Below are positions 15,903 through 55,969 of a stretch of DNA of 64,000 nt, in pieces. The DNA is taken from assembly GCA_028277945.1 (NCBI GenBank), contig JANQFH010000008.1, positions 195,442 to 259,441 on the forward strand. The letters run 5' to 3'. The notes below the pieces were generated by a model. The model worked only from the letters and a program-made list of their open reading frames with translations. It ran no database searches and was not told the origin of the DNA. This stretch comes from Oligoflexia bacterium. Its GTDB lineage: Bacteria; Bdellovibrionota_G; JANQFH01. Each line of letters begins with the position of its first letter. The first letter of the stretch is position 1. The position numbers and the translations under genes are program-made.

Positions 15903-16034
15903 AAGGCAAGAATTAGGCCAATAGGAATGTCCGGTATTCCAATGGGTTGTAGATAGGTAACGCTTAGGAACAGTATGTCTGATATAGGACGCTCTGTTCA
16001 CCCTGAAGACAGTTTGTTTGTATTGCGAACAATT
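15903..16034. repeat. about 130-nt conserved intergenic element, copy 1 (copy 2 at 28016..28146)
   Basis: Ungapped alignment by eye gives roughly 80% identity with 28016-28146. Best-conserved blocks are TTAGGCCAAT, GTCTGATATA and TGAAGACAGTTTGTTTGTATT.CGAACAAT. ORFs over the two copies lie on different strands, so the element is not coding. Confidence 0.7.
15905..15920 (-). promoter_or_regulatory. sigma-54-like -24/-12 motif inside repeat copy 1, facing MFS gene 14620..15888
   Basis: Minus strand TGGCCTaattcTTGCC. GG at 15919-15918 and GC at 15907-15906 are 10 nt apart. It is very close to ATG 15888, so the transcript would be nearly leaderless unless the start is M10. Confidence 0.35.
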
Positions 16035-16149
16035 GAGCCGTTGCCGGTCTGCCATCATGGAACCTCGCATCTGCCTTCAAGGTAAAGGTATACTCATCTC
16101 CTGCATCAGAGAGCAGCCCATTTTCTTGACCACAAACCAACGAACGCAT
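16033..16149 (-). pseudogene. 5' remnant of a family-5 solute-binding protein gene
   Basis: MRSLVCGQENGLLSDAGDEYTFTLKADARFHDGRPATAQ.. matches SSWKVSDAGDEYTFTLNSDARFHDGSPVTARD of 43334-44740. This includes a 31-nt identical run, gatgcaggagatgagtatacctttaccttga. Homology breaks at about 16034, where repeat copy 1 begins. Confidence 0.7.
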
Positions 16150-27922: not shown

Positions 27923-28015
27923 TTTCTAGCTCCTGGTTACAGATGGTTTGTAACTTGTTTGTAATTTTGTCAGTTACACATTATCTGGAATCGATAGCAA
28001 TTAATACCTTTTCAA

Positions 28016-33940: not shown

Positions 33941-34453
33941 GCAGATTCACATTCTGTTCGCGCTATTGGGTTGCTCCCCACAACCATCACCACAACTTTG
34001 CGAACCTTACACCCGGTCGTGACTCTATTTAGTCTAGGTTGGCTATTGCTCTACAAGCCACACGACTGTCATCCCTCCTAAGTTGATGTCGAACAAACGA
34101 TGCGTTGTTGACAGCTTCGTGTCCACACCGGGATGAGTGCCCGTCTTTGGTACCCCCCAAAATGACGCACACTCGCCAGGGTGCTTAGCCCGCTTACTTA
34201 GTACACTTTGACCCACTTTGTCAATCCTGAAGACCTAACCCACTGTTTTTAAACAAAAATATTCAGAAAGCCACTATTGTTATCATCACGGTGACAAAGC
34301 TTATACCACACGGTATCAAAGTCTTAATTGATAGAGTGCCAGTAGAGTAGAGTAAGGAATAAAGCGTCTCTCGATCTCTTATCATCACGAGAGAAGAAAG
34401 AGGGCCTCCACTAATATAGATTTCGGAAATTGGTCTATTAAAAAGTGTGACTT

Positions 34454-35638
34454 ATGAATAAAGAAAAGACGATTAAGAGCTCTCTTTTCAATGGATTTTC
34501 TCTCCAGGCCTTTATCTCCTCCACTCCAAGCATTGTGACGGTTGCGATTATTCCATTTATCGTTAAACACCTCGGTTTAGCATATATATGGATCGGAGTT
34601 ATTTTTTTTCTATTACGAGTGGGTCTAATAAGCGGTCGGTTTATCGGTCCGTTCTTTCTAAAATGGCTAAAACCACATTACCTCTGTGCTATTTTTGAGC
34701 TAAAGAATTTTTTCTTGATTACCATTATCTGGTTTTATTTCGACAGGATACCTTCTTCCCTCTTTGCTATTCTTTGGCTGCTAAAAGGAATCATCATTGG
34801 AGCCATATCAACCCTGGTATTTTCTTGGCTGCGTCATCTATCCGACGTCAGTAAGACCAAGCGAACGTTAATTACGGTTATGGCTATTATACAGTCTAGC
34901 TATGGTGTAGCAGGAGTTATCATTCTTACTACAACTCCTGATATAAATCTTATCAAGAATATCTTGTTAATTGATGCGCTGTCATCCTGTGTAGGACTAG
35001 TTACATTTTTGAATCTTAGGCGTTTTCGGGCTAAGGACACAGGTCGTGGAAACGCATTCTCCATATTTAAATTTCCATTTCTCAATAGAGAACGCGTCAT
35101 TCTTCTTATTGTGGATATTTTGGTAGCGGCAGGTCTTGGCGGTGCAAATATTCTACTAGTGAAGTATGGTGAAATGTACTTTTCTACCATAGGCGGATAT
35201 GGCACGACGCTTGTCGTATATGCGATAGCTTTTCTAATCGTTGGCTTTCTATTTAATATAGAACAGTCAGATACAGATCTCATTATTCGTAGACTGACGA
35301 TGCTTTGCGTGCCTCTAATGTGGGCAGGGTTGGTTGTTTTGGCTATCGCATCAGATAAGTCTTTGTTAGGTATTGCTGGATTTTCACTAGTCTATTTAAA
35401 CTTACCTATTTTCTTTTTAAGAATACAGGCGAAATGGTTCACGTTAAGTACCCCTGAAGAAGCGGCTAAGATATTCGCTTACAGAAGTTTACTTGTAGAT
35501 GTTGTTAGTGCTGTCGGTGAAGTGGTCTACGGTAGTATTAAAGAAGATATTCTGATAAGAATTACTCTCTTAACTCTTGCTATTATTCTTGGAATTGCTT
35601 TCCGAAATATGATCTTTCCTCACACACAACAATCATGA
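34454..35638 (+). CDS. polytopic membrane protein, MFS-like transporter (convergent with cassette C)
   Basis: 10-12 hydrophobic helices over 394 aa. MFS motifs are weak, so the family assignment is tentative. Confidence 0.5.
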   Translation: MNKEKTIKSSLFNGFSLQAFISSTPSIVTVAIIPFIVKHLGLAYIWIGVIFFLLRVGLISGRFIGPFFLKWLKPHYLCAIFELKNFFLITIIWFYFDRIPSSLFAILWLLKGIIIGAISTLVFSWLRHLSDVSKTKRTLITVMAIIQSSYGVAGVIILTTTPDINLIKNILLIDALSSCVGLVTFLNLRRFRAKDTGRGNAFSIFKFPFLNRERVILLIVDILVAAGLGGANILLVKYGEMYFSTIGGYGTTLVVYAIAFLIVGFLFNIEQSDTDLIIRRLTMLCVPLMWAGLVVLAIASDKSLLGIAGFSLVYLNLPIFFLRIQAKWFTLSTPEEAAKIFAYRSLLVDVVSAVGEVVYGSIKEDILIRITLLTLAIILGIAFRNMIFPHTQQS

Positions 35639-35657
35639 AGAATGAGCTTTGTATAGC

Positions 35658-37532
35658 CTAGGCACTATATCTCGCCAGTGATGATTGATTGTTCAATTCG
35701 GGCATTACTAGTAGCGGCACAGTATTCGCCAGCATTTTAGGTAGTAATTTCACTTTCCACTTAGTACATAATTCTTGAATTTCCATTTCTTCAAAGCGAG
35801 AAGTTACAAGTATTGATTGTTGCTCCAGCCTGTATTCCTTGATCAAATCCAATCCGGTTTTTTTACTTCCTAGCAATTCATAGTCAAAAAGATAAATTGA
35901 TGGTCCCTGTTCTTTATGTTGTGCTAGATAGCTTGATGCATCGGTATAATTAGACAAATCAACTTGATTAATGGAATGTAGATATTTCAGCGGGCCAAGC
36001 CGGTTTGTCCACACGTGGTGGATAAATATATCGTCGTCAAGTACTACAAAGTCACTATTTGGCTTTATATGAATTTTTGGAACATACCAATTTGGTGGAG
36101 GAGCCTTGGGAACTATCATCTTCACATTCGTTCCCATGTTTTGCCGTGAGTCTATTGTTAGTTCTCCATGCCAACGTCCTAAGGAGCTCTTCGCATAGTA
36201 TAAGCCTAGTCCTAATCCATGTTTCTTGTTAGCAGTCACACCTCTCTCTGTCGCTTTTTTAAGCAGTTCCTCTGACATGCCGCATCCATTATCCGAGACT
36301 TCAATACAAAAATTGTCTCCGGAACAATTGCATAGTCGTATACTAACTTCACCATTATTTGGAATAGCTTCCACGGCGTTATTAATAAGGTTCGAGAGAA
36401 TTCTTTTGAACTCGACAATCTCGACCTTCGCAAAGATACTATAGGCTTCTTCCGTAAAAACTGTATTAATCTTTATATCCTTACGTCCTGAAAACTGAAT
36501 CCTCTTTTCGGACACAAGAGTTTCTATAAGCACGGCGATCTGCTGAGTACTTACACGTTCGAAGTGAGTGTTGTCTAAATGGCGGGCATCCTGATCTGAG
36601 TAATAGGTATTGTCATTCCAAAGTAGCTGACGATGCTTTTCTACTAAGCTATTAGCAATATCCTGAATACGTGTGGCCGCTTGTCGCAAAAGAACACGTT
36701 GTTCTTCAGGGATATCACTAGAAGACTTGCCCAACATCTGCAAAGCAGTCAACGGTGATCTGATATCATGGGCCACTCTTGAGGCAATCTCGCCCATTGC
36801 GGCCTTCTTTGTTGCTCGTACTAGAACAGCTTGGGCTGTTTCTAATTCTTTTACCAATTTTCGAGTATTTTTGTATAATTCATTAATCTCCTTTATGTTT
36901 GAAAATCGTACTTCTTGAGAATTCTCAAATAGAGACCTTAGTCCATGTTGCGAAAGTCGTCTAGATAGATGCACTATCGGCCAAGTAATTTTTTTTCCTA
37001 TAACCCCTCCTATCCAGACGAATATAATAAATAGGGAAACAAGGGCTATTACGAGCACTACTAACGCTCGATAAACAGATCGTGATAATAGTTGTTGTGA
37101 AAAAACAATCTGGATCGTTGCTGCCATTTCTTTGCTAGTTTGATCAAAGTAGACATGAGAGGTAATAACTTCAGTTGAGGAGATTCCCTCACGTTTGGTG
37201 GTACTGCAGATTGAAAAATTTTGACTGTCAACAACACTTATACCCAAAATTGACCGGTCACGTAAAAGTATTTTACATTTTCTGTAGACTTCCGCATGGG
37301 CTCCTATAAGAAGACTGTGGCTTATGTCCTCGGTAAAGATGTTTACGATAGATTGGAACTTTGCTTGAAGCTCCTCCTCTGCACTCTTCTTTATCAAGTA
37401 GAGTGCCAATGCCCCACTAAGTACGACAGTTGCCGCCGTTATGACGGCTGAGGGAACGAACATAGCCCTGCCTAATGTCCACCTAAATCTCATTGTCTTT
37501 AGCCCACTGTAGTCGGTAGAGAGGAAAGTCAA
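35658..37532 (-). CDS. hybrid sensor histidine kinase (cassette C)
   Basis: Two TM segments. H-box VAHDIRSPLTAL. N-box NLINNAVEAI. G-boxes DNGCGM and HGLGLGL. Receiver-like C-terminus (FVVLDDD .. IYLFDYEL .. ILVTSR .. LPK). The start could be MRFRW (37493). Confidence 0.85.
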   Translation of the reverse strand: MTFLSTDYSGLKTMRFRWTLGRAMFVPSAVITAATVVLSGALALYLIKKSAEEELQAKFQSIVNIFTEDISHSLLIGAHAEVYRKCKILLRDRSILGISVVDSQNFSICSTTKREGISSTEVITSHVYFDQTSKEMAATIQIVFSQQLLSRSVYRALVVLVIALVSLFIIFVWIGGVIGKKITWPIVHLSRRLSQHGLRSLFENSQEVRFSNIKEINELYKNTRKLVKELETAQAVLVRATKKAAMGEIASRVAHDIRSPLTALQMLGKSSSDIPEEQRVLLRQAATRIQDIANSLVEKHRQLLWNDNTYYSDQDARHLDNTHFERVSTQQIAVLIETLVSEKRIQFSGRKDIKINTVFTEEAYSIFAKVEIVEFKRILSNLINNAVEAIPNNGEVSIRLCNCSGDNFCIEVSDNGCGMSEELLKKATERGVTANKKHGLGLGLYYAKSSLGRWHGELTIDSRQNMGTNVKMIVPKAPPPNWYVPKIHIKPNSDFVVLDDDIFIHHVWTNRLGPLKYLHSINQVDLSNYTDASSYLAQHKEQGPSIYLFDYELLGSKKTGLDLIKEYRLEQQSILVTSRFEEMEIQELCTKWKVKLLPKMLANTVPLLVMPELNNQSSLARYSA

Positions 37533-39042
37533 ATTGGTAGCGTTTTTCCGGGACTTTAATATGTTTGTGGTAAATTACCGGAGTATAAAGATGAAATAAT
37601 GGAACGATAAATGACTTTTCCTCAAACTCAATCATTAGATCAGTGTATTTTTCTAATCTCCGTATACGGTCAGATATGAAACTGATTTCATCAGCACCCT
37701 TTAAAAGCTTCGTTGTGGGGAAATTGCCAAATTGGATTGGATTTTTGGCTCGAAACAAGTCTAGGAAGCCATCTGGGTCTGGTATGACTCCAAAATAACC
37801 TACCATAATCAAATCGTAATCTTTGCTTTTTAGAAGAGGTATAACCTCTTCAATATTTTTGAACTCTATAATCGGGATCATACCTACGTTGGTCAACACT
37901 TCACTGATAGCCTTACCTACAGGTATGTTTAAATATTCTTTCCTCAAAACTATTCTAAGCTTTTTATGTTTTACTTTATTTTTCCAGAGCTTTTTGAAAC
38001 TGATCGGACTCATACGGCGAAAGTCACGTTCGTAGTATCTTCTTAGAAGAACGCCATGTGGTAAAAAATGCTTCTGATGGTCTATAAAGAAACCGGGTTT
38101 CTCTATCTGGGAAACTCGAGTTTTTATTAGCGCCGCAATATCTCTTCTAAAACTTTCATTACTTAGTGCTGGATTGTCAGTGTTTGTATATAGATGTAGG
38201 ATGCCCAGTCCTCCTAGACGGAGTAACTGATAATTATTTGGTAGTGTTCCCGGTTGTAATCCTGGATCAGCAAAGCCTAATGCGAAGTCAATCGAGTCAT
38301 TCCGTAATTGTGATAGTAGTTGATTTGCGCTTTCTACCCGTCGAAACGAAAGCCTGGATATATGGCTATCATTGGGAACGAACGGAACCATCTGCAGACG
38401 ATTTGGCAGTTGTACTGAGTCCAGAGAAAAAGAGCCAGACCCCACTACCTGAGAAGAACTACCAGAGGACTTTTTAGTTACACCGTAACCAGGTACTGCT
38501 AACAATTCTAACAGATACGGATACGGACGCTTGAGGCTTAGAATAATCGTGTGCTGATTCGGAGTGATAATTCCCGATGGTATTTGTCCATCTTTCAGGT
38601 TTTCGGCACCTACCACGATACGACCTAGATAGCTGGATATTTGCGTCATACTACCTTGCCATAAATGGCGTGACAGACTAAAGGCGATATCTTTACTCGT
38701 AATGAGCGCACCATCATGGAACCGAGCATGACGATCCAGATGAAAGCTATAACGTCTTCCATCTGAAGATATCTTCCAGCGCCTTGCAAGATCAGCTGTA
38801 ATACGATTTTCTTTGTCTAACTTTACTAGAGTGCGTAAGTATGGTCTAAGAAGGTCAGAATGTACGTAATGCCACGCATCTATTGGATCCAGAGAGCTGG
38901 GCAAAATAGGCAACGCTATCTCAAAGCTGTTGGTTGTCTTACGGTACTTCTGTTTAGATGATGCTGCATAAGTATGAAAGACAAATGAAAATAAAAGAAA
39001 GTGCAACAGGCACGCCTTCATCAAAATGTGAATGAGTTTCAC
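37483..39042 (-). CDS. periplasmic solute-binding protein, family 5 (cassette C)
   Basis: Signal peptide LLHFLLFSFVFHTYA. Signature region LARRWKISSDGRRYSFHLDRHARFHDGALITSKDIAFSLSR. The 3' end overlaps the HK ORF. Confidence 0.85.
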   Translation of the reverse strand: MKLIHILMKACLLHFLLFSFVFHTYAASSKQKYRKTTNSFEIALPILPSSLDPIDAWHYVHSDLLRPYLRTLVKLDKENRITADLARRWKISSDGRRYSFHLDRHARFHDGALITSKDIAFSLSRHLWQGSMTQISSYLGRIVVGAENLKDGQIPSGIITPNQHTIILSLKRPYPYLLELLAVPGYGVTKKSSGSSSQVVGSGSFSLDSVQLPNRLQMVPFVPNDSHISRLSFRRVESANQLLSQLRNDSIDFALGFADPGLQPGTLPNNYQLLRLGGLGILHLYTNTDNPALSNESFRRDIAALIKTRVSQIEKPGFFIDHQKHFLPHGVLLRRYYERDFRRMSPISFKKLWKNKVKHKKLRIVLRKEYLNIPVGKAISEVLTNVGMIPIIEFKNIEEVIPLLKSKDYDLIMVGYFGVIPDPDGFLDLFRAKNPIQFGNFPTTKLLKGADEISFISDRIRRLEKYTDLMIEFEEKSFIVPLFHLYTPVIYHKHIKVPEKRYQFDFPLYRLQWAKDNEI

Positions 39043-40130
39043 TGCGTACTCCGGTCACAGTAGATCTCAATATCATTCTGTTTTATCAGTATATGTTTTT
39101 GTGTATACGTTACTTCTACGCCTTTATGGTGTGCTTTGTAATCATATCTATAATGACCATCGAAATATCGGCATATTTGTAACGGCCCTGATTTTTTTAG
39201 TAGGTCTGTCACCCCCAATTGTAGAGGATTTTTATTTCCCGAACGTGATGACGAGGCCATCTCCTGAAACGGATGCAATTTTGAATCAATTCGCTTAGGT
39301 ACATTAGGATGAGCGTAATAAAATATTTCTCTGTCACCGCACTTCCTAAAGTAATAGGGAATGTCACCTCGTTCTAATTGTTCTAGCTCACTAGGTAGAA
39401 ATTCGTTCCCGTTTAAATTATTCGCCTTCTTTGTCAAGAAGGAATGATAATCTCTTGTAGACCGAGGAATGACCCGAATCGGATTTTGCATGAATCCATC
39501 AATGGAAGCAAAAAGATTCGCTGTGAGTTCTGTTACTGATGAGAGAAAGTTCAATGCGTCAAAAAAACCAAAGCAAATTGCAGCAACGCCACTGTGGGAT
39601 CTATCCAACTCTCGAAAGTTATTTAATAGGTGGGAGAGTCCTGAATCTTCAAATGTCAATGCAGGGGAAGGTATGAGTGCTGTTTCAGAGAGAAGTGTGT
39701 GATCTTCAAAGATACATTCTATATCGATAGGGCTGAATATGATACTGCCAGCAGAAGTCTTGCCAAGCAATACATTGGCACGGTGCAGATCTCCAATTCC
39801 GAACCAAGTAATAAGTGCGATGGTACGGCCAATATCTTCTAATACTTCTAAATCTAGATCTTTGGAAATGAGAGGTTTAAGTAGGAGTTCCTCTACTCTG
39901 CCAAAACATTTTTCACCAGGAGATGACATTTCGACATATAGTTTTGGTAAAGATCTTCCTGGGTATACAAATCCCCTTTTCTTAGCTTCAGATTCTAATA
40001 AAGATGTTAAGGGACTTAATCGAGATAAGAAGAGGTATTCCCAAAATACAGTTCTAGGCTTGCAAATCCTTTGGGTACCATCACGACAAACTCGCTGTCC
40101 AAAATTGTGAGGGTCGCCTAACGGTTGCAT
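39039..40130 (-). CDS. stand-alone kinase-like protein resembling the LanM N-terminal (DUF4135-type) domain
   Basis: WFGIGDLHRANVLLGKTSAGSIIFSPIDIECIF contains a D-x-H-x-x-N catalytic-loop pattern followed by (I)D.E. As I recall, this is how class II lanthipeptide synthetase kinase domains read. No LanC-like cyclase domain is attached. Overlaps the SBP start by 4 nt. Confidence 0.45.
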   Translation of the reverse strand: MQPLGDPHNFGQRVCRDGTQRICKPRTVFWEYLFLSRLSPLTSLLESEAKKRGFVYPGRSLPKLYVEMSSPGEKCFGRVEELLLKPLISKDLDLEVLEDIGRTIALITWFGIGDLHRANVLLGKTSAGSIIFSPIDIECIFEDHTLLSETALIPSPALTFEDSGLSHLLNNFRELDRSHSGVAAICFGFFDALNFLSSVTELTANLFASIDGFMQNPIRVIPRSTRDYHSFLTKKANNLNGNEFLPSELEQLERGDIPYYFRKCGDREIFYYAHPNVPKRIDSKLHPFQEMASSSRSGNKNPLQLGVTDLLKKSGPLQICRYFDGHYRYDYKAHHKGVEVTYTQKHILIKQNDIEIYCDRSTQ

Positions 40131-40174
40131 ATGCCTCCCATCAGTCTATGCGGGTAGAGAAAGGGGAGGCTTAC

Positions 40175-40258
40175 CTAGATCCCTACAGTCACGCCACGTA
40201 TTACGACAATCTTCTCCAATTTATCTAAATCTATGTATTCTCGTCTTCTTTTTTTCAT
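40175..40258 (-). CDS. candidate precursor/signal peptide, 27 aa (cassette C); not in ORF track
   Basis: Minus-strand ATG at 40258-40256. Translation checked codon by codon: MKKRRREYIDLDKLEKIVVIRGVTVGI*. RBS AGGAG at 40269-40265, 6 nt before the ATG. The stop is 44 nt upstream of the kinase-like gene. Confidence 0.45.
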   Translation of the reverse strand: MKKRRREYIDLDKLEKIVVIRGVTVGI

Positions 40259-40350
40259 GATTTACTCCTATTTAGGTTATATCCACCAATTTTTCAAGCT
40301 CTTATTTGATATCCTTAAAGCTTAGGATGCACCCTATCCTAATTTATTTC

Positions 40351-40367
40351 TGCAAGGAACGTGCTAA
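40351..40367 (-). promoter_or_regulatory. near-consensus sigma-54-like motif (AG instead of GG at -24) upstream of short ORF 40258
   Basis: Minus strand TAGCACgttccTTGCA versus consensus TGGCAC-N5-TTGCA. About 93 nt upstream of the ATG, similar to the cassette B spacing. The G-to-A change in the normally invariant GG lowers confidence. Confidence 0.3.
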
Positions 40368-40413
40368 CAAAAAAGTTAATGATTTTAAAAGATTGGGTTC
40401 TTCAGGAAAGAGT

Positions 40414-40434
40414 ATTGTTGGTTTTTGCAACAAT
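40414..40434. promoter_or_regulatory. 7-bp-arm palindrome, candidate activator/repressor site upstream of cassette C
   Basis: ATTGTTGgtttttgCAACAAT. It lies about 50-60 nt upstream (minus sense) of the sigma-54-like motif. A second palindrome, TTAGGATgcaccctATCCTAA, is at 40322-40342. Confidence 0.3.
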
Positions 40435-40904
40435 CTAGTGCATAAAACGACAAATTGTATCTCTTACGACCAAGGTTAATAAAAGTTAATAGTGATTGAA
40501 GGGGAGGATTAGTTGTGGAGTGTTAACCCTTGGATGATATTAGACGAATTTTGAAAATCGGTCTTAATCTATTGATAAAAAAGAAACTTTTTGGGAAATT
40601 GGGGTTGATTGCCGACTGACCCAACAAAATACTACAGAAGTCTTAATGTGACAGACGTAACACATGATTCATTTCAGATGCTTATGTTGTAGTGCAGAGT
40701 GTATAGAATTTTCTCAACAAGAAGGCATATATCCTGGGAAAGGCTGCTGGTTATGGGATGTGGCCTTGCCTACTGGTATGGCGACTTACAACACTTACTC
40801 TTTTGTTAATTTCCGTAGGACTAAGAGTGGTTGCGAGGCTGGTGTACAGCATTCTCCCTATTTCAGTGGAGGGCTTGTTTTCAGAGTTTAAACACCTAGT
40901 TCGC

Positions 40905-41050
40905 TATGAGGCTTTCCATAAACTGGTAGCCTTCGGCAATTGCAGCATCGGTAATTTGGTCCTTCAAACTGTCAACACTTCTCCGTCCCCAAGCACATGA
41001 AGTGTGTTGAACTTGAAATAGGTCTGCTACCTAAGCGAATGCTTTCCTAC
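40905..41050 (-). pseudogene. 3' remnant of a paralog of gene 44960..46414
   Basis: Minus-strand translation ..LFQVQHTSCAWGRRSVDSLKDQITDAAIAEGYQFMESLIAN* aligns with ..FLFSKSPECWAKNATGLKDQITDAAITEGRQFMESLIVN* of the 484-aa protein. An in-frame stop lies further upstream. Confidence 0.65.
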
Positions 41051-41116
41051 ATTCCTATTGAAGTAGTTGGGCATAAATTACGTTAGTGGTTTTAACAAAT
41101 ACTAGTTAAGGTCTTG

Positions 41117-42331
41117 ATGTTTAGATTCTATTTCAACTCTTTTCGAGGTTTACCCAGGGCGGGAGTGTTGCTTTCATTGGCTGCATTGATAAACCGTCTT
41201 GGAAGTGTGGTGTTGTTTTTCTTTGCGATCTATTTAACGAAAAATAATTGGAGCGTATTTGATATTGGGAAGGTTCTATCAGCCTATAGTTTTGGCTATG
41301 CAGGTGGGGCTTATCTTGGTGGTCGTCTTAGTGATCGTTATGATAGCCGTTTTATACTTATAATTACACTAATGGGTTCTGGCTTATGTTTCTTCGGACT
41401 TTCTATAGCGGATTCTTTTACACCTGTTATTCTTTTACTTTCTATGGCTGGCATTTTGGAAGGTGCCTTTAAACCAGCATACAATGTTACAATGACCCGA
41501 TGTTGTACCCAGGACGAGTGGTCACGTGCTTATGCACTGTATATGACCACGACTTATTTAGGAGGAGCTATAGCTTCAATGGCAGGTGGATTTTTGTCCA
41601 AATGGAACTTTAGCTACATTTTTTATTTTGATGGTGTAACGTGTATCATTGCAGCGGTTTTTGTGTGTATTGTTTTCGATCGGCTAACCCGTTCAGTGGA
41701 AGCAGAGAAAGAGCAAATCACCGATGAGTTCAGTCTATCTAAAAATACACCTCCATCTTCTCTAGTTATTTGGATAATTTTTGTATCCATGTTTTTTGTC
41801 TATCTTGTTGATCAACAGGAGTCTGGAAGCTATATGATTCATATTACAAAACAGTATGGTATTGATACTCACCAGGTAGGTATGTTGATTGCTTTTGGCT
41901 GTGTACTTATGGCACTGACCACTGTACCTTTGACTCAGTTTTTCAAACGCATTCCGGATTTTATCGCGATGACTTTAGGATCTTTGATTCTTTGCCTGTC
42001 CTTTGGTCTTTTGAATCAGGGTGATAGTTTTGCCTTTCTTTTCTTGTTGATGGCTATGTGGTCCTTGGGCAGCATCATATCATTTCCGACCGTAGTGAGC
42101 CTCATTGGTAAGTACTCAACAAAGGAAAGGGTTGGACATAACATGGGAATTTACCATTTCATCTCTGGCTTAAGCAGAATCGTCGCGCCCTCTCTTGGTA
42201 CCTATGTCTATCAAAACTTGGGTCCGAATATCTTGTGGAGTGCTTGCACTGCTATTGGTGTTTTCAGTGGTGTATCCTTCCTTCTCATTTATCGTTTTAG
42301 TTTAAGGTCAATTCACTCCAGAGAAGCATGA
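41117..42331 (+). CDS. MFS transporter (cassette E)
   Basis: ATG at 41117. MFS motif-A-like LGGRLSDRYDSRFILII. 12 hydrophobic helices. Its stop overlaps the next start (ATGA). Confidence 0.8.
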   Translation: MFRFYFNSFRGLPRAGVLLSLAALINRLGSVVLFFFAIYLTKNNWSVFDIGKVLSAYSFGYAGGAYLGGRLSDRYDSRFILIITLMGSGLCFFGLSIADSFTPVILLLSMAGILEGAFKPAYNVTMTRCCTQDEWSRAYALYMTTTYLGGAIASMAGGFLSKWNFSYIFYFDGVTCIIAAVFVCIVFDRLTRSVEAEKEQITDEFSLSKNTPPSSLVIWIIFVSMFFVYLVDQQESGSYMIHITKQYGIDTHQVGMLIAFGCVLMALTTVPLTQFFKRIPDFIAMTLGSLILCLSFGLLNQGDSFAFLFLLMAMWSLGSIISFPTVVSLIGKYSTKERVGHNMGIYHFISGLSRIVAPSLGTYVYQNLGPNILWSACTAIGVFSGVSFLLIYRFSLRSIHSREA

Positions 42332-43131
42332 AACTGATCGAAAGAGATGTAGCTTTAATCAACCATGAATATTACATCGATGGAATTGCTGGCAGTCAGT
42401 ATACATCGAGACAGGTGTTTACGTGCCGAGGTAAACTATTTGTTGTGATTGATGAATTGTGTGTCGATAAGTTACATGATATAGCGGTTAACTACGTTGG
42501 CCAATATAGTACTAAGAGTATAGTGTGTCTTTGCTCACATTTACGTGTTAGACAAATTAGTGAAATGTGGGAAAAGACAAGTTCAAAATTCTATTCGTGG
42601 TTTGGTTTTACGTTTGATCCGGCATTGTCCCGGTTCGACTTTGCTTACTCGAAAAGTGCACTAGAGGGATTCGACGTATCGGTCGGTATGCCAATTAGTA
42701 AGGTTGAAAAGGAAACACTGTTAAAATTGTGGCAAAAACACTATATTGAAAAGGTTCTCCTAGGTTATCCGGAGAAAATAAGGCATCGTTATCTTGAAGA
42801 ATTTCAACAAAGATTGGGTTCTGATAATGAAAATCGGCATACCATAGTTCGGCAGGATAGTGAGATTGTGGCCCATCAGATGCTACGAAGACTTTTTACG
42901 GAGCAAAGAAACTGTTGGGATAAAGAGTTGCACTTTTGGGTCGATGGACAGCTGAATAAGTCGATTCGACGAGAAATTCATCGACGGTTTTGGTATGAAG
43001 TACATGAGGCATCGAGAAAACATATGGTGCTTGGTGGTGTTGCGAGTAATAATATATCGAGTATCAAACATCTCATTAAAAATGGTGGCCGATTACTTTT
43101 TATTCAATACATAGGGTTATCGTCTTACTAG
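42328..43131 (+). CDS. cytoplasmic protein of unknown function, translationally coupled to the MFS gene (cassette E)
   Basis: ORF track. No signal peptide and no motif I can name with confidence. The C-terminal half is vaguely acyltransferase-like (..LGGVASNNISSIKHLIKNGGRL..). Confidence 0.55.
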   Translation: MKLIERDVALINHEYYIDGIAGSQYTSRQVFTCRGKLFVVIDELCVDKLHDIAVNYVGQYSTKSIVCLCSHLRVRQISEMWEKTSSKFYSWFGFTFDPALSRFDFAYSKSALEGFDVSVGMPISKVEKETLLKLWQKHYIEKVLLGYPEKIRHRYLEEFQQRLGSDNENRHTIVRQDSEIVAHQMLRRLFTEQRNCWDKELHFWVDGQLNKSIRREIHRRFWYEVHEASRKHMVLGGVASNNISSIKHLIKNGGRLLFIQYIGLSSY

Positions 43132-43254
43132 TGGTCTGACATATCTTGGTTGTCACCCTACAAACTACACATAGATTGTGTCAAAATTGAACAGTTTGTT
43201 TGAAATGGAGACAGTAACAAACCAAGTAAAAACTAACTGATTTTATGCCTGTGT

Positions 43255-43343
43255 AACCTTGACGGATTTAAGCGATCAGGGTAAGCATTTATAATTAGAC
43301 GAGATTATAAATGAGCTTAGAAAGGGAAGCGCAATGCGGAGTT
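43255..43343 (+). repeat. about 90-nt repeat, copy 1 (copy 2 at 47261..47352)
   Basis: The shared ends AACCTTGACGGATTTAA and GATTATAAAT.AGCTT.GAAAGG.AA..GCAATGCGGAGTT flank a diverged middle. The repeat includes the ATG (MRS..) of the SBP ORF. Confidence 0.6.
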
Positions 43344-44740
43344 CAAAAATTGGTATGACAAACGTTCCAAGTGACCTTGATCCATTGAAGGCACGATATG
43401 CTTACGACCTGATGATGAACGCATGCGTTTTTTCGCGACTTGTACAGCTTGATGGTAATGGTCAGGTGGTGTCAGAGCTTGCGTCCAGTTGGAAGGTTAG
43501 TGATGCAGGAGATGAGTATACCTTTACCTTGAATTCGGACGCGAGATTTCATGATGGGTCACCAGTAACAGCTCGAGATGTTGTCTATACCTTCGAAAGG
43601 ATCTTGAAGTCAGATCGGCCACCTGCTTCGATTCTTCGTCTAGCATTAGATCCTTCCTTTCGTTCGGATGAGGATTGTCCGGTAAAGGCAGTGAACGATC
43701 GTCAGGTCAAATTTCATTTACCTGGTGCGTACCCGCCATTTCTGTCTCTGCTTTGTAATCCTGTTTTTGGAATAGTTGCTCAGGATAGTGATGGTAAGAT
43801 TGGCTCTGGTCCAATGGTGCTGGAGGCTGACGAGCATAGTAAGACATTGAAGTTTAAACCCTTCCAGGAAGGCGCCGGTCTCGGCGAGTTTTATGTAAAG
43901 CAGATCTCCCGTGACAGCTTACCGGAAGTTATTGCCGAAGATGAACTAGATCTGATTTTTGGGCTCAATTCAATAGATTTTCAGAACGTAATCCGCATAG
44001 ACCCATACAAGGTCGTCAGAGGCCATGATTCGTTTGTCGCTCACTTTTTATGCAATACCAAAAGTCCAGTACTAGATTCTTTAGAGAGGCGACGTAATCT
44101 AAGCTATTTGATCAATTCGCTTTCAGATGAAGTGAGCAATTTAGCAGAATATCAAAAACCGCTGAAAAGTTTTCTACCAAGTGGGTTGTTGTCGCCATCT
44201 TATTACCAGAGAGCAACATCGCCTGTATCCGAGGATGCCTTTAGTGCAAAAAACAGCCAATTCAAAGCCCAACCGCTGCGTATCGTGGTTCAGAAAGGTA
44301 TTTTTTCTCAGAGTTATATGAGTGCGCTAGGTTCTCTAATAGAAAGGCTAGGTATGGTACCTGATATTCAACTAGTGGATTCAGACGCATTATGGAACCG
44401 CTATGCAAAGGATGATTATGATCTTATATCTTTTAGTTACAGTTTGGCGATTCCCGACGATCCAGATGGCTACCTATGGCCCTTCGACAATAAGGAGCTC
44501 GGCATTGATAATCGGTTTCCTATGAGCTCTTTTCTTCAGAAGATTGAAAAGGTCCGTTTTACGTCGAACCAGAAAGAGAGACTCGAGCTCTATGAACGTG
44601 AGTTCAAGCAGTTTGAACAGGAACATTACTTTATTCCAGTGCTTCAACATGACCATCTTATTGCTTTTAAAAACCGGAGCGAAATACCGACTTTAAAGCC
44701 TACATTCCTTTATCGATTGTCTGATTTTATCAGACCTTAG
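43334..44740 (+). CDS. family-5 solute-binding protein lacking a signal peptide (possibly truncated/inactive) (cassette E)
   Basis: It aligns with the cassette B SBP from ..LKIGVSILPQTLDPMK (here MRSSKIGMTNVPSDLDPLK) onward, so the leader peptide is missing. The new 5' end is supplied by the 90-nt repeat. The rest is intact (..ASSWKVSDAGDEYTFTLNSDARFHDGSPVTARDVVYTFER..). Confidence 0.75.
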   Translation: MRSSKIGMTNVPSDLDPLKARYAYDLMMNACVFSRLVQLDGNGQVVSELASSWKVSDAGDEYTFTLNSDARFHDGSPVTARDVVYTFERILKSDRPPASILRLALDPSFRSDEDCPVKAVNDRQVKFHLPGAYPPFLSLLCNPVFGIVAQDSDGKIGSGPMVLEADEHSKTLKFKPFQEGAGLGEFYVKQISRDSLPEVIAEDELDLIFGLNSIDFQNVIRIDPYKVVRGHDSFVAHFLCNTKSPVLDSLERRRNLSYLINSLSDEVSNLAEYQKPLKSFLPSGLLSPSYYQRATSPVSEDAFSAKNSQFKAQPLRIVVQKGIFSQSYMSALGSLIERLGMVPDIQLVDSDALWNRYAKDDYDLISFSYSLAIPDDPDGYLWPFDNKELGIDNRFPMSSFLQKIEKVRFTSNQKERLELYEREFKQFEQEHYFIPVLQHDHLIAFKNRSEIPTLKPTFLYRLSDFIRP

Positions 44741-44824
44741 CCTAGATCCGGACACAGACATATTTTTTAACGAATTTATTATGGTTCATTTCGTGTAATA
44801 GTGTGTTCGATCCGAGTGTGTACC

Positions 44825-44959
44825 CTAGGCTTTTTCAAGAATGAGTTTGGTTTTGAGCCGAAAGGGCTCTAGCAGTATATCCAGGGTACCCCGTTTCAGG
44901 CGGCGACGTCCTTTAAGAAAGGCGGAGATGTTTGCTGGCGTTGCATGGGCAAGTAAAGC
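44825..44959 (-). pseudogene. possible C-terminal remnant of an XRE-type HTH gene
   Basis: ALLAHATPANISAFLKGRRRLKRGTLDILLEPFRLKTKLILEKA* resembles the recognition-helix end of XRE antitoxins (..NIS.FL.G.R.L....L..LL..L.L). It has no start codon and begins right after the stop of 44960-46414. Confidence 0.3.
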
Positions 44960-46414
44960 CTAATTCACTATTAGGCTCTCCATAAACTGGCGGCCTTCGG
45001 TAATTGCCGCATCGGTAATTTGATCCTTTAAACCTGTGGCATTCTTTGCCCAACACTCAGGGCTTTTTGAGAATAGGAATCGCTGCTGGTTGGCCTTGAA
45101 CCCATATTGGTGTCCGCCACCTCTGCCGCGCTGGGCGTGACCGTTGTAAGAGGTACAATAAGACATCTCTGCCCATTCTAAATCCTCTCGTCTCGCTTTC
45201 AAAACCAATGCCGGACAATCATCAAACCATTTCAACACGGCATCTGCCTGTTCACTACATTTAAGCAAAAGACCAGAGATAACATCCATAAAAGCCATTC
45301 CTGCCATACACTGACCTACACTCAACTTTTGCGGCCTATGAATATGCCGATGCATCCAATGCCAAACAGGCATTAAAGAAGAGTGTAATCCATTTACCAG
45401 TTCATGCATATAGGCTCGTTCGTATTGTACTACCGGATCTTCAGAATTGATTGATCCGATCAAAAATTCTTCTTTAATCTTTATCTTCATCTCTCCATTG
45501 TTTTCAAAAACCCATTTTTCAAACATCTCGTCTATAGCCGAACGGATCATCAGCATTACAAAATCCCATGCTGAACCACTAAGATAATGCCTTACAAAAT
45601 CGTGCCCCGTACCTGTCGCCTCCTCATCACTCCAGTTTGGCGGTAGTTTTTTTGGCACTGCTCTGATAATTCGATCTTGCTTCAGCGTAATATGCAATGG
45701 CTTGATATAAGGGGTGTCTCCAGGACCTTTTGCTCTAGATAAATCACCCAACTTAGTTCGCTCAAACCGAGTATCAGACACCTTACTTGCTGGCGTTGCC
45801 ACTGAAATCAGCATCATGATACCTTTAAAGCCTCCGTTATCACCCTCGAACATCACCTTTTCATAAGCCTCATTTGAAAAGAAATTCCCTTGTGAGTGAC
45901 TGACTGTTAATGTATTGTAACCTTCCTCCAGTGATTTTCGATAAGCCGCTACTTGTTCAGCAATGTCAGCTCTTCTTTGTCTGTTCACAAATTCGTCAAA
46001 TAACCCCCTAATCGACTTAGAGATGTTCACCAAAAAATCCGGCGCTAGGTGCTGCTGGGAGAACAGACGAAACATGCTCCCTGAATCTAAGACAACGTTT
46101 TTTCTACGCAGATCGTCCCGCTTTTGATCCATTGCCTCGGCAATCTGCAGCAAAACTGTTTGATCGGTGTTGAACGCGATGTTCGGCTCAGCGTCTCGTA
46201 CTAGCCCTTCCACACCTCTCAAAACACGCATTTTCTCCCAAAGCTGAGTCCAAGATTTTTGTGCCTCCTCAAAAGAGGTAAACATTCCATTTGCGAAATA
46301 TAATCTCGATTTCCTCCAACACTCACCTGCACCATAACCTACCTCAGCCACAGTCAGCAGAACGACAAGGATCCCTAGAGCAATGTTCAAATTTCTACTT
46401 GTGTTCAAATTCAC
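44960..46414 (-). CDS. membrane-anchored/secreted protein with SHSQG nucleophile-elbow-like motif (putative alpha/beta-hydrolase or lipase-type effector)
   Basis: N-terminal anchor LNIALGILVVLLTVAEV. The motif LTVSHSQGNFF resembles GxSxG hydrolase elbows. The function is a weak guess. Confidence 0.55.
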   Translation of the reverse strand: MNLNTSRNLNIALGILVVLLTVAEVGYGAGECWRKSRLYFANGMFTSFEEAQKSWTQLWEKMRVLRGVEGLVRDAEPNIAFNTDQTVLLQIAEAMDQKRDDLRRKNVVLDSGSMFRLFSQQHLAPDFLVNISKSIRGLFDEFVNRQRRADIAEQVAAYRKSLEEGYNTLTVSHSQGNFFSNEAYEKVMFEGDNGGFKGIMMLISVATPASKVSDTRFERTKLGDLSRAKGPGDTPYIKPLHITLKQDRIIRAVPKKLPPNWSDEEATGTGHDFVRHYLSGSAWDFVMLMIRSAIDEMFEKWVFENNGEMKIKIKEEFLIGSINSEDPVVQYERAYMHELVNGLHSSLMPVWHWMHRHIHRPQKLSVGQCMAGMAFMDVISGLLLKCSEQADAVLKWFDDCPALVLKARREDLEWAEMSYCTSYNGHAQRGRGGGHQYGFKANQQRFLFSKSPECWAKNATGLKDQITDAAITEGRQFMESLIVN

Positions 46415-46898
46415 AAGGATCTACCTTTGGATCATGCCCGCCAAGCATCTTCCCTGAAAGCTTACCGTTGAACTCTATATAACGCCTCGCTCTTGCTCGT
46501 GTGTTCACTACGAGATCTTCGATTACCTCACCAGCCTCCCCAGCATAAGCCTCCAAATCTACCTTGGCAAAACAAAGCGATGCTCTCGTAATCTGTCCTG
46601 CCACTACCTCAGCGTCTAAGTCGTTTTTAAGGGCATTCTGTAGGGCCTTTGCCTGTTGTCGCATCGCCATCTGTACCATTCTATCTCCGGCATACTCCCT
46701 CTCAATGAGGGCTTCCACGTCATCTCGCACGCCGTCTTGGTTTTTATCTACCCCCTCAATTGTCTCGTCTTCTGCTTTCTTACTACAGGGCCCACATCCA
46801 GCTCCCACCAGGCTTCCTAAGGTAAGACTAAGCAGCAGGACAAAAGAGGCACCGGTCATACGGATTGTCTTCAGAATCAACAACCATAAATTCATCAT
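46395..46898 (-). CDS. small lipoprotein-like protein upstream of and overlapping 44960..46414
   Basis: Signal sequence with SLVGAGC (lipobox-like) followed by an acidic helical region. A 20-nt overlap with the next gene suggests a functional pair. Confidence 0.5.
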   Translation of the reverse strand: MMNLWLLILKTIRMTGASFVLLLSLTLGSLVGAGCGPCSKKAEDETIEGVDKNQDGVRDDVEALIEREYAGDRMVQMAMRQQAKALQNALKNDLDAEVVAGQITRASLCFAKVDLEAYAGEAGEVIEDLVVNTRARARRYIEFNGKLSGKMLGGHDPKVDPCEFEHK

Positions 46899-47260
46899 CT
46901 CTATTCTCCTTCTTTAGTTACTACGATTGCGGAAAGTTGTTCTGTTTCCTTAATAACGCAAGAATCGTGCCTATACAGGGTCATATAGGCAATCTCATGA
47001 TTCGGGTTTCTGATGTATCTGATAAAACAAAGATGGATGAAGGAAAATGAAACAACCTGACGTTAATCCAAGCAATATGTATGAAAAGAAAACAACAGCG
47101 TGTATGTCATGCTTGGAGTCTTTTCACTCGGTATAAGTAAAAGAGCCTCGACAGAAACGACGTGGATATGTTTGTGCTGAGTCAATTGTTATTTGCGCAT
47201 CTCCGGATCTGATGAAACAGCGACAAACTGAAAGAAGAACTGACCAACTTTACCATTTAT

Positions 47261-47352
47261 AACCTTGACGGATTTAATCAGTCAAGGTAGTCAATGAACT
47301 AGGATTAGTAGGATTATAAATAAGCTTGGAAAGGAAATTGCAATGCGGAGTT
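47261..47352 (+). repeat. about 90-nt repeat, copy 2
   Basis: See 43255-43343. Here the shared ATG (47343) opens only a 16-codon ORF, MRSLMLQFIGRKYVSR*. Confidence 0.6.
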
Positions 47353-47379
47353 TAATGTTGCAGTTTATAGGAAGAAAGT

Positions 47380-47748
47380 ATGTCAGCCGTTAAAATTACA
47401 GCAAATTTATTTTCGCTGTACTTTGTAATAGTGCCTTTCAGCAATGCAGCAAACTGGTCACTCGTAGAGAAGATTGACCCAAGCACAACGGCTCAGACCA
47501 AACGTGAATTAACCGACAGCGAGTATTCGTATATTTCTGGTAAATTCAAATGCACTGTTTTAGCACCAGAGAAAGACTCAAATAAAAAACGTGGGTGGTT
47601 TAGAACTATTAAGTGTAAAAATGGCGATCTAGTATTTGAAGATACTGCTTCTTGTGGCGGTATACATGGAGAATTCGGTATTGTCGGGGTTAAAGTTACC
47701 TATAAAGGTGAAACTTTTCAGCCATTGCTAGTTTGTCAGGCAAAATAG
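47380..47748 (+). CDS. small secreted Cys-containing protein, unknown function
   Basis: Signal peptide LFSLYFVIVPFSNA. Five Cys in the mature part. Confidence 0.55.
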   Translation: MSAVKITANLFSLYFVIVPFSNAANWSLVEKIDPSTTAQTKRELTDSEYSYISGKFKCTVLAPEKDSNKKRGWFRTIKCKNGDLVFEDTASCGGIHGEFGIVGVKVTYKGETFQPLLVCQAK

Positions 47749-47975
47749 TTTCATCGCCTAAAATGGCCTAGTCAAGAAAAGCGTTTACAGGTTGTGAAAA
47801 GAGAAGGCCCTCTTATTTCAATGAGGCCGAATTTATCCGCGATATAAATTAGTTGTACAATGGAAACGCATAAGGAACCAGGGCATTCTAGATTTCTCCG
47901 CCCGTCTAAAACCGTGTATATCTGGTATGTAACATCAATAATGCATGATATTGGTCGAAGAAAAGGTTAACATGC

Positions 47976-49151
47976 GTGGATAGGTTAATGAGCGGAAGCT
48001 TGGTCCGTGTCTATGTTGTCCGATTTTGTGCTTCAAGCATTGAAGGGATCGTAGCCGTAATCACGATTACAGCCTTCATCAGAGCGACGGGATCAGTTAG
48101 TGCGGCAAACCTTCTCAATTCCATATTTTGGCTGACGTTATTTTTTGCAGAGCTGCCAACTGGCTATCTAACAGATAAGTGGGGTGGTAAAAGAGCGCTA
48201 GGTATTAGCTTAACTCTACGGGCTATTGGGTTTTTAATTTTCTACCTTGCTGGAGGCTCTTGGATTCTGCTTATAGTAGGCTGTATATTAACAGGCGTCG
48301 CTGTAACTTTCCTAAGTGGAACCTTTGAGCTACAAGTAAAGCAAATTCAAAAAGAGGCACAGACACAAGAGCTAGCCGGAGATTCCTCAAAGACCGTCAT
48401 TTCTTATCTACATTTTTCTCACTATCTGGGCCTATGTACCGGGTCACTTCTCGTAACACTTTGGCTGCTTAAAATGGAGATACAGACAGCATGGCTATTG
48501 TCGGCTTGTCTATCATTTATTGCGCTCGGTATCTTATCCTTTACCTGGGATTCTCTTAAGCCTGCTTATGATAAGGGTCCTTTTATTCATTTCAAAGAAG
48601 CTGTCTCGAAAGTTATTAATGAGCAGAAAGTTCGGAGCCTATTTGTATATCAATTTATCTTTGTACTTTTTTCGATATCGTTTCTAACGAACTGGGTAGT
48701 GATTTTTGTCCCAAGACTAGACAATACGCCGATTCAGCTCGGCGTATTAACGGTGGTTTTTTCTATGCTGATTAGTTTTTTTGTATGGACGTGGAAGTAC
48801 CTAGAGATACTTAAAAGATTAACTATACCTTATGTTTTCATTGGATTTTCTATATCGCAAGTGCTCGCATGCAGCGATGTTATGGTGTTTAGATTTCTTG
48901 GCGGATTAGGTGCCTTATTTTTCTTTGCTGGCTGCCAGATAGGCATCCGGCATGCAATATTTTCATCTATTTCGTCCTCGAAAGCGGGAGCTATCTTGTC
49001 GCTATTTAGTTTGCAGGAAAATTTTTCTGGTTGGGTTGGTTTACTTTCATTGGCATTCTTTCTGAAGCTCTATTCAGTTGAGGTATCCTGGATAGCCTCA
49101 GGAGCCTGCATGGTTGCTGCAGTTGGCTTTTATTCATTCCATCGACGTTGA
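47976..49151 (+). CDS. MFS transporter
   Basis: Motif-A-like GYLTDKWGGKRALGISL. About 11-12 hydrophobic helices. The start is either GTG 47976 or ATG 47988. Confidence 0.75.
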   Translation: MDRLMSGSLVRVYVVRFCASSIEGIVAVITITAFIRATGSVSAANLLNSIFWLTLFFAELPTGYLTDKWGGKRALGISLTLRAIGFLIFYLAGGSWILLIVGCILTGVAVTFLSGTFELQVKQIQKEAQTQELAGDSSKTVISYLHFSHYLGLCTGSLLVTLWLLKMEIQTAWLLSACLSFIALGILSFTWDSLKPAYDKGPFIHFKEAVSKVINEQKVRSLFVYQFIFVLFSISFLTNWVVIFVPRLDNTPIQLGVLTVVFSMLISFFVWTWKYLEILKRLTIPYVFIGFSISQVLACSDVMVFRFLGGLGALFFFAGCQIGIRHAIFSSISSSKAGAILSLFSLQENFSGWVGLLSLAFFLKLYSVEVSWIASGACMVAAVGFYSFHRR

Positions 49152-50425: not shown

Positions 50426-50654
50426 GAAACAGGCAGCAGCACAGATTGGTCATTTAGTGAAAAAGACCCGTAAAAGTCTAGGTGTCACCCAGAAGGAGTT
50501 GGCGCTGACCTCGGGTACAGGTCTGCGCTTCATCATTGAGCTGGAGAAGGGCAAACCGACCTGTCAACTAGCCAAGGTGCTGACGGTTCTACATACGCTG
50601 GGCATCAAGCTTGAGCTAACGGCGCCAGCCACTGCAAGAGATGACGGCAAATGA
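50424..50654 (+). CDS. hipB: HipB-like XRE-family antitoxin/repressor
   Basis: HTH LGVTQKELALTSGTGLRFIIELEKGKPTCQLAKVLTVLHTLGIKLEL. Overlaps hipA by 4 nt. Confidence 0.8.
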   Translation: MKQAAAQIGHLVKKTRKSLGVTQKELALTSGTGLRFIIELEKGKPTCQLAKVLTVLHTLGIKLELTAPATARDDGK

Positions 50655-55964: not shown

Positions 55965-55969
55965 TAGTG

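Follow-up and report, generated by a model that had tools for sequence, protein, structure and literature searches.

In a 64,000-nt stretch of contig JANQFH010000008.1 from an Oligoflexia bacterium (at its full length, the window), three plus-strand genes, called cassette E here, encode a major facilitator superfamily (MFS) transporter, a 267-aa protein and a solute-binding protein (SBP) that lacks a signal peptide. They lie between the 3' stump of one gene and a full copy of a related gene. A first-pass annotation of the sequence had taken this arrangement for a decaying or recombined cassette, and the question raised by the locus is what cassette E derives from and whether it is a remnant. 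With slightly better than even confidence, we propose that it is a rearranged, kinase-less derivative of a conserved operon encoding an exporter, an acyltransferase with the GNAT (Gcn5-related N-acetyltransferase) fold, a periplasmic binding protein and a histidine kinase.

Metagenomic contigs of Bdellovibrionales-like bacteria retain this operon, and the window keeps its central order: transporter, acyltransferase, binding protein. On the upstream flank, the aminotransferase and the HpcH- and MaoC-type enzymes are absent and the stump of an unrelated gene is found instead; on the downstream flank, the kinase is absent and the 3' end of a convergent 484-aa gene takes its place. The SBP is a family-5 paralog of the binding proteins in neighboring cassettes that resemble those for peptides that are made on ribosomes and modified after translation (RiPPs). 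In place of its signal peptide and about nine mature residues, there is now a copy of the ~140-nt promoter-like segment found ahead of the next operon. The arrangement may have been built in a plastic island by two or more events of illegitimate recombination. The MFS/acyltransferase pair may still make and export an N-acylated amine, amino acid or peptide. The leaderless SBP, which would be unable to act as a periplasmic co-sensor, may be a recently stranded gene or one kept for a cytoplasmic role, and the stump would be an inert relic rather than a mobility repeat. The genes of cassette E are as follows.

41114..42331, plus strand: MFS_1 transporter, 405 aa, probable ATG at 41117 (Pfam MFS_1, E = 1e-56)
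42328..43131, plus strand: GNAT-fold acyltransferase-like protein, 267 aa (from predicted structure and family alignment; no Pfam or NCBIfam family)
43334..44740, plus strand: family-5 SBP, 468 aa, mature domain intact, signal peptide absent (Pfam SBP_bac_5)

The 267-aa protein has a predicted GNAT fold

Word-index protein searches returned no close homolog of the 267-aa protein, and no curated GNAT model in Pfam or NCBIfam matched it above its cut-off. An exhaustive HMMER search of 1.8 billion representative sequences recovered 13 remote homologs (173 to 279 aa, 21 to 31% identity, E values from 7.5e-19 to 5e-4). Residues L131, W135, Y139, H202, W204, R214, H218 and N242 are invariant in all 14 family sequences. 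With the 14-sequence alignment, AlphaFold modeled the 267-aa protein at a pLDDT of 87.5 and a pTM of 0.85 (pLDDT 36 in a single-sequence run), and a Foldseek comparison of the model with the PDB returned two-domain GNAT proteins, namely 3frm, VipF, 3iwg, PamZ, a clavulanate tandem GNAT, MAB_4324 and FemX. In the predicted structure, residues 116 to 263 follow the canonical GNAT order of elements, and residues 1 to 105 form a second, smaller, GNAT-like alpha/beta domain. As read from the model, assignment to the GNAT fold is secure, and the 267-aa protein represents a new family within this well-known fold. On the secondary-structure map, the invariant residues would map to beta4, the beginning of alpha3 and the stretch preceding alpha4, where the cofactor and the active site are usually located.

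Profile comparisons placed the family at the margin of known models. Three of the 14 members touch Acetyltransf_1, at E values of 0.055 or weaker, and one touches Acetyltransf_4 (E = 0.0024). The family profile found nothing among PDB sequences, and no second member was detected when the family hidden Markov model was run against all open reading frames (ORFs) of the window. The closest known proteins are two-domain GNATs with a noncatalytic N-terminal GNAT-like domain (MshD mycothiol synthase, WecD, VipF, PamZ and MAB_4324), at 7 to 13% identity. Unlike these, the window protein has no Pfam GNAT match, and in its family the Q/RxxGxG/A motif is replaced by H202, W204, R214, H218 and N242. The genomic settings differ as well, with signaling genes around the 267-aa family and cell-wall or resistance genes around the proteins of the comparison.

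Most informative loci place the homologs beside secreted binding proteins

Eight loci of the family were informative; three further contigs were too short to inform.

L002 (metagenome-assembled genome [MAG] of Bdellovibrionales), 1682-8688: aminotransferase, HpcH/HpaI lyase, MaoC-type hydratase, MFS transporter, the homolog, Peripla_BP_6 protein, histidine kinase
L095 (JGI metagenome), 1382-8815: same order as L002, with a 381-aa protein without a Pfam match in the transporter position
L005 (Logan run SRR20820735), 580-8794: genes of L002 plus an ATP-grasp enzyme, with the MFS gene further upstream
L012/L013 (Logan runs): sigma-54 response regulator, 270-aa protein, the homolog, Peripla_BP_6 protein, kinase, aminotransferase, TauD, KAS III, dehydrogenase (ADH), EamA exporter
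L009/L010 and L011 (Logan runs): sigma-54 regulator, the homolog, binding protein
L004 (Logan run): the homolog, ABC exporter
L003 (ENA assembly): the homolog without such partners

A secreted binding protein adjoins the family member in six of the eight loci, and in four of these six a kinase follows. All of the adjacent binding proteins bear signal peptides, and exporters and small-molecule enzymes are usually nearby. The genes are tightly packed: the last four of L002 overlap, the gene for the 381-aa protein of L095 overlaps the homolog by 4 nt, and the acyltransferase and binding-protein genes overlap by 4 to 8 nt, or are separated by a 51-nt gap in L005. A block of aminotransferase, HpcH/HpaI lyase, MaoC hydratase, transporter, GNAT-like protein, binding protein and kinase is common to three unrelated contigs (L002, L095 and L005). 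We defined the exporter/GNAT-like/binding protein/kinase module from L002, L005, L009, L011, L012 and L095. The lyase/hydratase (HpcH/MaoC) pair would plausibly supply an unusual acyl-CoA as the donor, and the most economical reading of these loci is that they encode a circuit for making, exporting and sensing a small N-acylated compound.

The first-pass annotation had suggested that the 267-aa protein could be a different kind of peptide-modifying enzyme. The GNAT fold bears out its enzyme-like character. That it modifies peptides is unproven, because the homologs adjoin genes for small-molecule enzymes (aminotransferase, HpcH-type lyase, MaoC hydratase, KAS III and TauD) and not precursor peptides; a small-molecule substrate is at least as likely as a peptide.

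Cassette E shares part of this module. The MFS stop overlaps the start of the 267-aa gene by 4 nt (41114-42331 and 42328-43131), which matches the layout of L002, where the MFS gene is directly upstream and overlapping. Beyond this pair, a 202-nt gap is followed by a leaderless SBP_bac_5 protein rather than a secreted type-I protein (Peripla_BP_6/ANF_receptor), and after the binding protein there is the convergent 484-aa gene rather than a histidine kinase. In line with the first-pass annotation, the cassette has no histidine kinase: none is encoded between 40131 and 47000, and the nearest one (35658-37532) is on the other strand in the neighboring operon. Nor is cassette E a RiPP-type cassette with a precursor gene and a recognized tailoring enzyme: reading by eye revealed no short ORF with a ribosome-binding site near it, and the 267-aa protein matches no RiPP enzyme family, in agreement with the first-pass annotation. 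The MFS protein (404 aa in the gene call of the Logan assembly) had weak matches in NCBIfam to several MFS subfamilies, including efflux-type ones, all far below cut-off. For the cassette proteins, the nearest homologs are those of Bdellovibrio, Pseudobdellovibrio and Bdellovibrionales MAGs.

Several observations weigh against descent of cassette E from this module. The MFS protein has no specific similarity to the MFS proteins of L002 or L005. Gene order is the sole ground for common ancestry of the whole module, the homologs being 21 to 31% identical. The adjacency of acyltransferase and SBP could be coincidental, as the SBP is of a different family and SBP_bac_5 genes are abundant here (four with a Pfam match plus one fragment in the 64-kb window). 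As for the enzyme itself, the acyl-CoA (pyrophosphate-binding) motif Q/RxxGxG/A was not visible at the beta4-alpha3 junction when the alignment was read by eye; the junction aligns as W-V-D-G-Q-L-N-K-S-I-R-R-E-I-H, with no conserved glycines and with the invariant R214 and H218 in that place. The acyl donor and catalysis are unproven, and the enzyme identity is predicted from the fold. Finally, no close relatives of this genome were found, which prevents a reconstruction of the ancestral arrangement and of when and in what order the events took place. A scan of a genome collection with a sub-alignment of the family gave no match. For the SelB-like elongation factor of the window (488-2617, minus strand), none of the matches listed among GTDB species representatives, a list in which the source genome itself did not appear, was above 36% identity, which suggests a lineage without close sequenced relatives.

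The binding protein starts within a promoter-like repeat

The SBP matches PF00496 (SBP_bac_5) at an E value of 1e-35 and 124 bits (cut-off, 32.4) over profile positions 2 to 362 of 368; in NCBIfam it shows weak similarity to NikA, CntA and OppA, all far below cut-offs. Its ATG at 43334 is the first ATG, GTG or TTG after an in-frame stop 13 codons upstream, and the 12 intervening codons, LDEIINELRKGSA, are hydrophilic. No other frame holds a signal-peptide-like stretch upstream of the SBP, and there is no lipobox. Because of the in-frame stop, the SBP cannot have a signal peptide, as the first-pass annotation had stated. Its N terminus, MRSSKIGMTNVPSDLDP, leads directly into the first strand of the mature fold, and its paralogs have 25 to 35 extra N-terminal residues with a hydrophobic core. 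The best relative is the paralog at 24097-25701 (42% identity), with residue 5 of the SBP aligned to residue 66 of the long ORF of the paralog; as annotated (P0020, 504 aa), this paralog starts with MKKSAKQFNIFSVLFLICFLSTDLLA..., a typical signal peptide, and the SBP at 37483-39042 has a typical signal peptide start too. The SBP of cassette E is cut immediately ahead of the mature fold's first strand (KIGMTNVPSDLDP versus KIGVSILPQTLDP). In word-index protein searches, no homolog outside this genome was above 30% identity.

The first codons of the SBP belong to a repeat that occurs twice.

43208..43346, plus strand: repeat copy 1, promoter-like, supplying the ATG and first four codons of the SBP
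47214..47355, plus strand: repeat copy 2, in a divergent intergenic region 25 nt upstream of an operon for a 122-aa protein, an MFS protein and a methyltransferase

The first-pass annotation was right that the repeat supplies the first codons of the SBP, and its length of 90 nt has to be revised to about 140 nt. The gapped match between the copies (43208-43346 and 47214-47355) has 74% identity (E = 3e-19), with ungapped cores at 43254-43283 and 47260-47289 (87%) and at 43303-43346 and 47312-47355 (86%); the window contains no further copies. Copy 2 is followed by the gene for the 122-aa secreted protein, then the MFS gene and the methyltransferase gene. The shared ATGCGGAGTT opens a frame of just 16 codons in copy 2 and so is probably noncoding there; in copy 1, the same ATG happens to fall into the reading frame of the SBP. 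The end of the repeat, at 43346, coincides exactly with the point where the homology of the SBP to its paralogs starts (codon 5, 43346). From the sequences, this sharp junction reads as the signature of an illegitimate join of a promoter region to a truncated gene.

The repeat contains promoter-like motifs, one of which resembles a sigma-54-type promoter, for which GG-N10-GC is the characteristic spacing. Copy 2 has a perfect 8-bp palindrome, ACCTTGAC-N11-GTCAAGGT (47262-47288), a TATAAAT box and a sigma-54-like motif, TGGAAAGGAAATTGCA (47327-47342), that fits this spacing. In copy 1 there are a partial palindrome (ACCTTGAC..TCAGGGT), TATAAAT, GAAAGGG and ATGCGGAGTT, and the sigma-54-like position holds a degenerate TAGAAAGGGAAGCGCA (43318-43333), which departs from the motif at the first G of the GG pair and at the TT of TTGC. 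Across the window, the loose pattern TGG-N8-TTGCW was counted 11 times, compared with 5.25 expected, and 11 occurrences were reached in none of 100 shuffles. Hits lie just upstream of cassette operons at 12330-12345 (plus), 28017-28032 (minus), 47327-47342 (plus) and 57554-57569 (minus). A motif at about 15905-15920 (minus), TGGCCTAATTCTTGCC, keeps TGG-N8-TTGC and ends in C; it was read from an alignment and lies outside the TGG-N8-TTGCW pattern. A sigma-70 consensus scan found no excess of promoters and none in the repeat. We rejected a riboswitch or small RNA reading of the repeat, as Rfam (40000-48000, E values up to 1) gave no RNA family and the repeat RNA folds no better than shuffled sequences (z of -1.4 to -1.6).

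The Logan assembly of run SRR20820740 is 100% identical to the window from 32328 to 43530. This independent assembly spans both the stump/MFS junction and the 267-aa/repeat/SBP-start junction, and therefore neither is an artifact of one assembler. Its contig SRR20820740_29955 ends at 43530, inside the SBP and next to the segment 43501-43590, which has an 80% identical copy at 16033-16121. The contig break could be repeat-induced or due to strain variation.

The stump is the end of a lost paralog of the 484-aa gene

The two flanks of cassette E carry the following minus-strand features.

40896..40982, minus strand: 3' stump of a lost paralog of the 484-aa gene, 28 codons plus a TAG stop (translation, tblastn, blastn)
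44960..46414, minus strand: full 484-aa gene, encoding a signal peptide, a ~290-aa domain and a unique C-terminal part of ~190 aa
46395..46898, minus strand: predicted 167-aa lipoprotein (sequence read directly), upstream of the 484-aa gene with a 20-nt overlap

The minus-strand translation of 40899-41111 ends in ...RRSVDSLKDQITDAAIAEGYQFMESLIAN, with the stump reading ...VADLFQVQHTSCAWGRRSVDSLKDQITDAAIAEGYQFMESLIAN before its TAG stop. In a tblastn search of the window, the last 28 residues of the 484-aa protein (457 to 484) matched 40982-40899 at 71% identity (E = 6e-7), and blastn aligned the two 3' ends at 87% over 75 nt (40895-40969 and 44959-45033; E of about 1e-17). No homology to the 484-aa gene was detectable beyond 40982; the frame, which has no start codon, stays open for 44 codons to about 41030, and the 16 codons further upstream align at noise level. 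The first-pass annotation had correctly recognized a paralog's end here, and its estimate of about 45 codons comes down to 28 that are detectably homologous. At the other boundary, the similarity stops 4 nt past the stop codon, and the sequences downstream of the two copies are unrelated. The last 23 codons differ by six synonymous and three nonsynonymous changes, and the preceding five codons are all nonsynonymous. These differences fit two once-functional paralogs, one of which would have been cut later.

The C-terminal ~190 aa of the 484-aa protein are unique to it, and the stump matches solely the end of this part; the lost gene was therefore a true within-genome paralog. The ~290-aa domain is common to four proteins (itself and three weak database homologs found by a word-index protein search), in which ANGMF, HSQGNF, VATPAS and a histidine are invariant. 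From these motifs, we infer that the 484-aa protein may be an alpha/beta-hydrolase-like secreted enzyme, although it has no Pfam, NCBIfam or PDB match. The predicted 167-aa lipoprotein matches no Pfam or NCBIfam family. Next to the stump, a 75-codon Cys-rich ORF (MIHFRCLCCSAECIEF...) at 40664-40891 (plus strand) stops 7 nt short of the stump's stop; it is a gene call in the Logan assembly and has neither a ribosome-binding site nor a family match.

Recombination, decay and alternative histories

Of the two terms that the first-pass annotation had offered, "recombined" is well supported, because there is a stump on one side, a promoter-like segment fused at the start of the mature SBP, and no kinase or accessory enzymes; "decaying" was not shown. 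In the strict form of decay, the whole cassette would be dead, with the SBP a pseudogene still without a stop and the MFS/267-aa pair unexpressed after losing its promoter and partners. This would explain why the cassette has no signal peptide, kinase or accessory enzymes, why the consensus scan found no plus-strand sigma-70 promoter between the stump and the MFS start, and why the sigma-54-like motif is degenerate in copy 1, and other gene fragments are present in the island. It is harder to reconcile with the coding sequences. All three ORFs (405, 267 and 468 codons; 1,215, 801 and 1,404 nt) are intact with no frameshift, and the 267-aa protein departs from its family at none of the columns that are invariant across the 14 members. 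At positions where all other members of its own family agree, the SBP has seven private changes, no excess compared with the six of its signal-peptide-bearing paralog. When random substitutions were simulated in the SBP ORF at 6.5 to 7.5%, which is the per-lineage half of the ~13 to 15% divergence in the repeat cores, 1.6 to 2.7% of the neutral copies stayed open, with indels not counted; the open fraction was 9% at 4% substitutions and 29% at 2%. Either the join is younger than the repeat divergence implies or the SBP gene is under selection. We consider complete decay rather unlikely, while giving it serious weight.

In a further reading, the SBP would have been neofunctionalized in the cytoplasm and be kept to bind the substrate or product of the acyltransferase, whether to carry it, to sequester it or protect the cell from it, or to present the substrate. 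In favor of this, the conserved mature domain is intact, the truncation coincides precisely with the start of the mature fold, and the repeat provides a ribosome-binding-site-like GAAAGGG followed by the ATG. A recent event explains the intactness equally well, and our literature searches turned up no precedent, with no description of leaderless family-5 binding proteins and none of the acyltransferase module. Such a role seems doubtful to us.

The two repeat pairs that frame the cassette invite another explanation. Their spacings are nearly equal (4,064 nt for the stump and the full gene, 4,006 nt for the promoter-like repeat) and their order is the same, as would follow from a single tandem duplication of a ~4-kb unit whose remaining homology was erased by later replacements. 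Nothing else is shared between the two units, in DNA or in six-frame comparison, and two separate replacements would be needed, each of matching length, which makes this history improbable. Least credible is a mobile cassette: although the stump and the full gene have, as first described, the same orientation and bracket exactly three genes at a distance of 4,064 nt, a role as functional direct repeats for excision or insertion is highly improbable, since the repeats are coding sequence of about 84 nt with 78 to 87% identity and short perfect runs, one of them just forms the coding end of an intact gene, the last 23 codons show mostly synonymous changes (six versus three) as for once-functional paralogs, the repeat search reported neither terminal inverted repeats nor short identical target duplications, and the Pfam scan, which covered all ORFs of 110 aa or more in the window that do not lie within larger ones, found no recombinase, transposase or integrase domain. 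We see no sign of a mobility device in these repeats.

The preferred reading, a rearranged derivative of the exporter/acyltransferase/binding protein/kinase operon, is consistent with a second scar in the window.

16033..16121, minus strand: fragment of a gene resembling the SBP of cassette E, ~30 codons (78% aa and 80% nt identity)

This fragment abuts a 131-nt promoter-like repeat at 15903-16033, which is 80% identical to 28015-28145. A sigma-54-like motif is present in the 131-nt repeat, which is found ahead of both the MFS gene (14620-15888) and the HExxH-hydroxylase cassette. Because the second scar adjoins a promoter-like repeat, promoter-bearing segments seem to be joints of reshuffling in this island.

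Comparison with known systems

Cassette E resembles truncated relics of illegitimate recombination in islands in having a short 3' stump without a start, sharp homology boundaries, nearby fragments and toxin-antitoxin-type genes. Unlike ordinary relics of this kind, it shows the near-equal spacing of two repeat pairs. Plasticity of islands ordinarily yields such features as the stump and the leaderless SBP. The clear SBP_bac_5 match places the SBP with the family-5 peptide, nickel and opine binding proteins NikA, OppA and CntA; unlike these, it has no signal peptide, lipobox or ABC partner, and no Pfam ABC permease or ATPase domain occurs in any scanned ORF of the window.

Systems that pair an autoinducer synthase with a sensor include LuxS/LuxP/LuxQ and CqsA/CqsS, and LuxI-type and FeeM-type enzymes are GNAT-like acyl-acyl carrier protein (ACP) transferases. 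The homologous loci share the make-export-sense logic of such systems, as they co-encode a cytoplasmic transferase, an exporter, a secreted binding protein, a membrane kinase and sometimes a sigma-54 regulator. The likeness to LuxI, LuxS and CqsA systems is one of logic, and the window's own cassette has no kinase and an SBP unable to reach the periplasm. A bolder extension, which we regard as a long shot, is that the 267-aa family would be the synthase of an undescribed class of diffusible N-acyl signals, which the linked transporter would export and a circuit of binding protein, kinase and sigma-54 regulator would detect in Bdellovibrio-like bacteria; here the circuit would have been rewired, and the leaderless family-5 SBP would be retained to bind the signal inside the cell, under a copied promoter of the sigma-54 type.

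The main value of the locus is an unannotated GNAT-fold family, without a database model, that is tied to secreted binding proteins and sensor kinases. The conserved linkage of acyltransferase, binding protein and kinase is a candidate make-export-sense signaling circuit in predatory-type bacteria, where cell-cell signaling is poorly understood. Cassette E itself offers a minimal exporter-plus-enzyme pair for heterologous expression and points to promoter-bearing segments as the reshuffling joints of such cassettes.

Other features of the island

Toxin-antitoxin-type genes are scattered in the window, encoding Fic (9717-10907), RES-domain (19139-20923), HipA (50651-51907) and PIN-domain (58138-58536 and 62183-62596) proteins; their presence fits a plastic island. 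A 54-nt direct repeat (55946-55999 and 56028-56081; 85% identity, 82 nt apart) lies at the junction of a 398-aa gene and the 3' end of a 522-aa gene.

RiPP-type enzymes are encoded in four cassettes (3907-8248, 12609-14607, 22314-27779 and 35658-40130) and comprise YcaO twice, an alpha-ketoglutarate (aKG)-HExxH peptide beta-hydroxylase and a LanM-like fragment. In three of the four, the enzyme is accompanied by an SBP_bac_5 protein and a histidine kinase, the kinases being homologous (33 to 39% identity among them); the unit at 12609-14607 has only an HExxH-like paralog and a YcaO gene. A 27-codon ORF at 40175-40258 (minus strand), MKKRRREYIDLDKLEKIVVIRGVTVGI, has an AGGAG box 6 nt before its ATG. 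A distance of 44 nt separates it from the downstream LanM-like (DUF4135) gene (39039-40130), after which come an SBP and a kinase. This ORF is a candidate for the precursor peptide of the neighboring LanM-like cassette.

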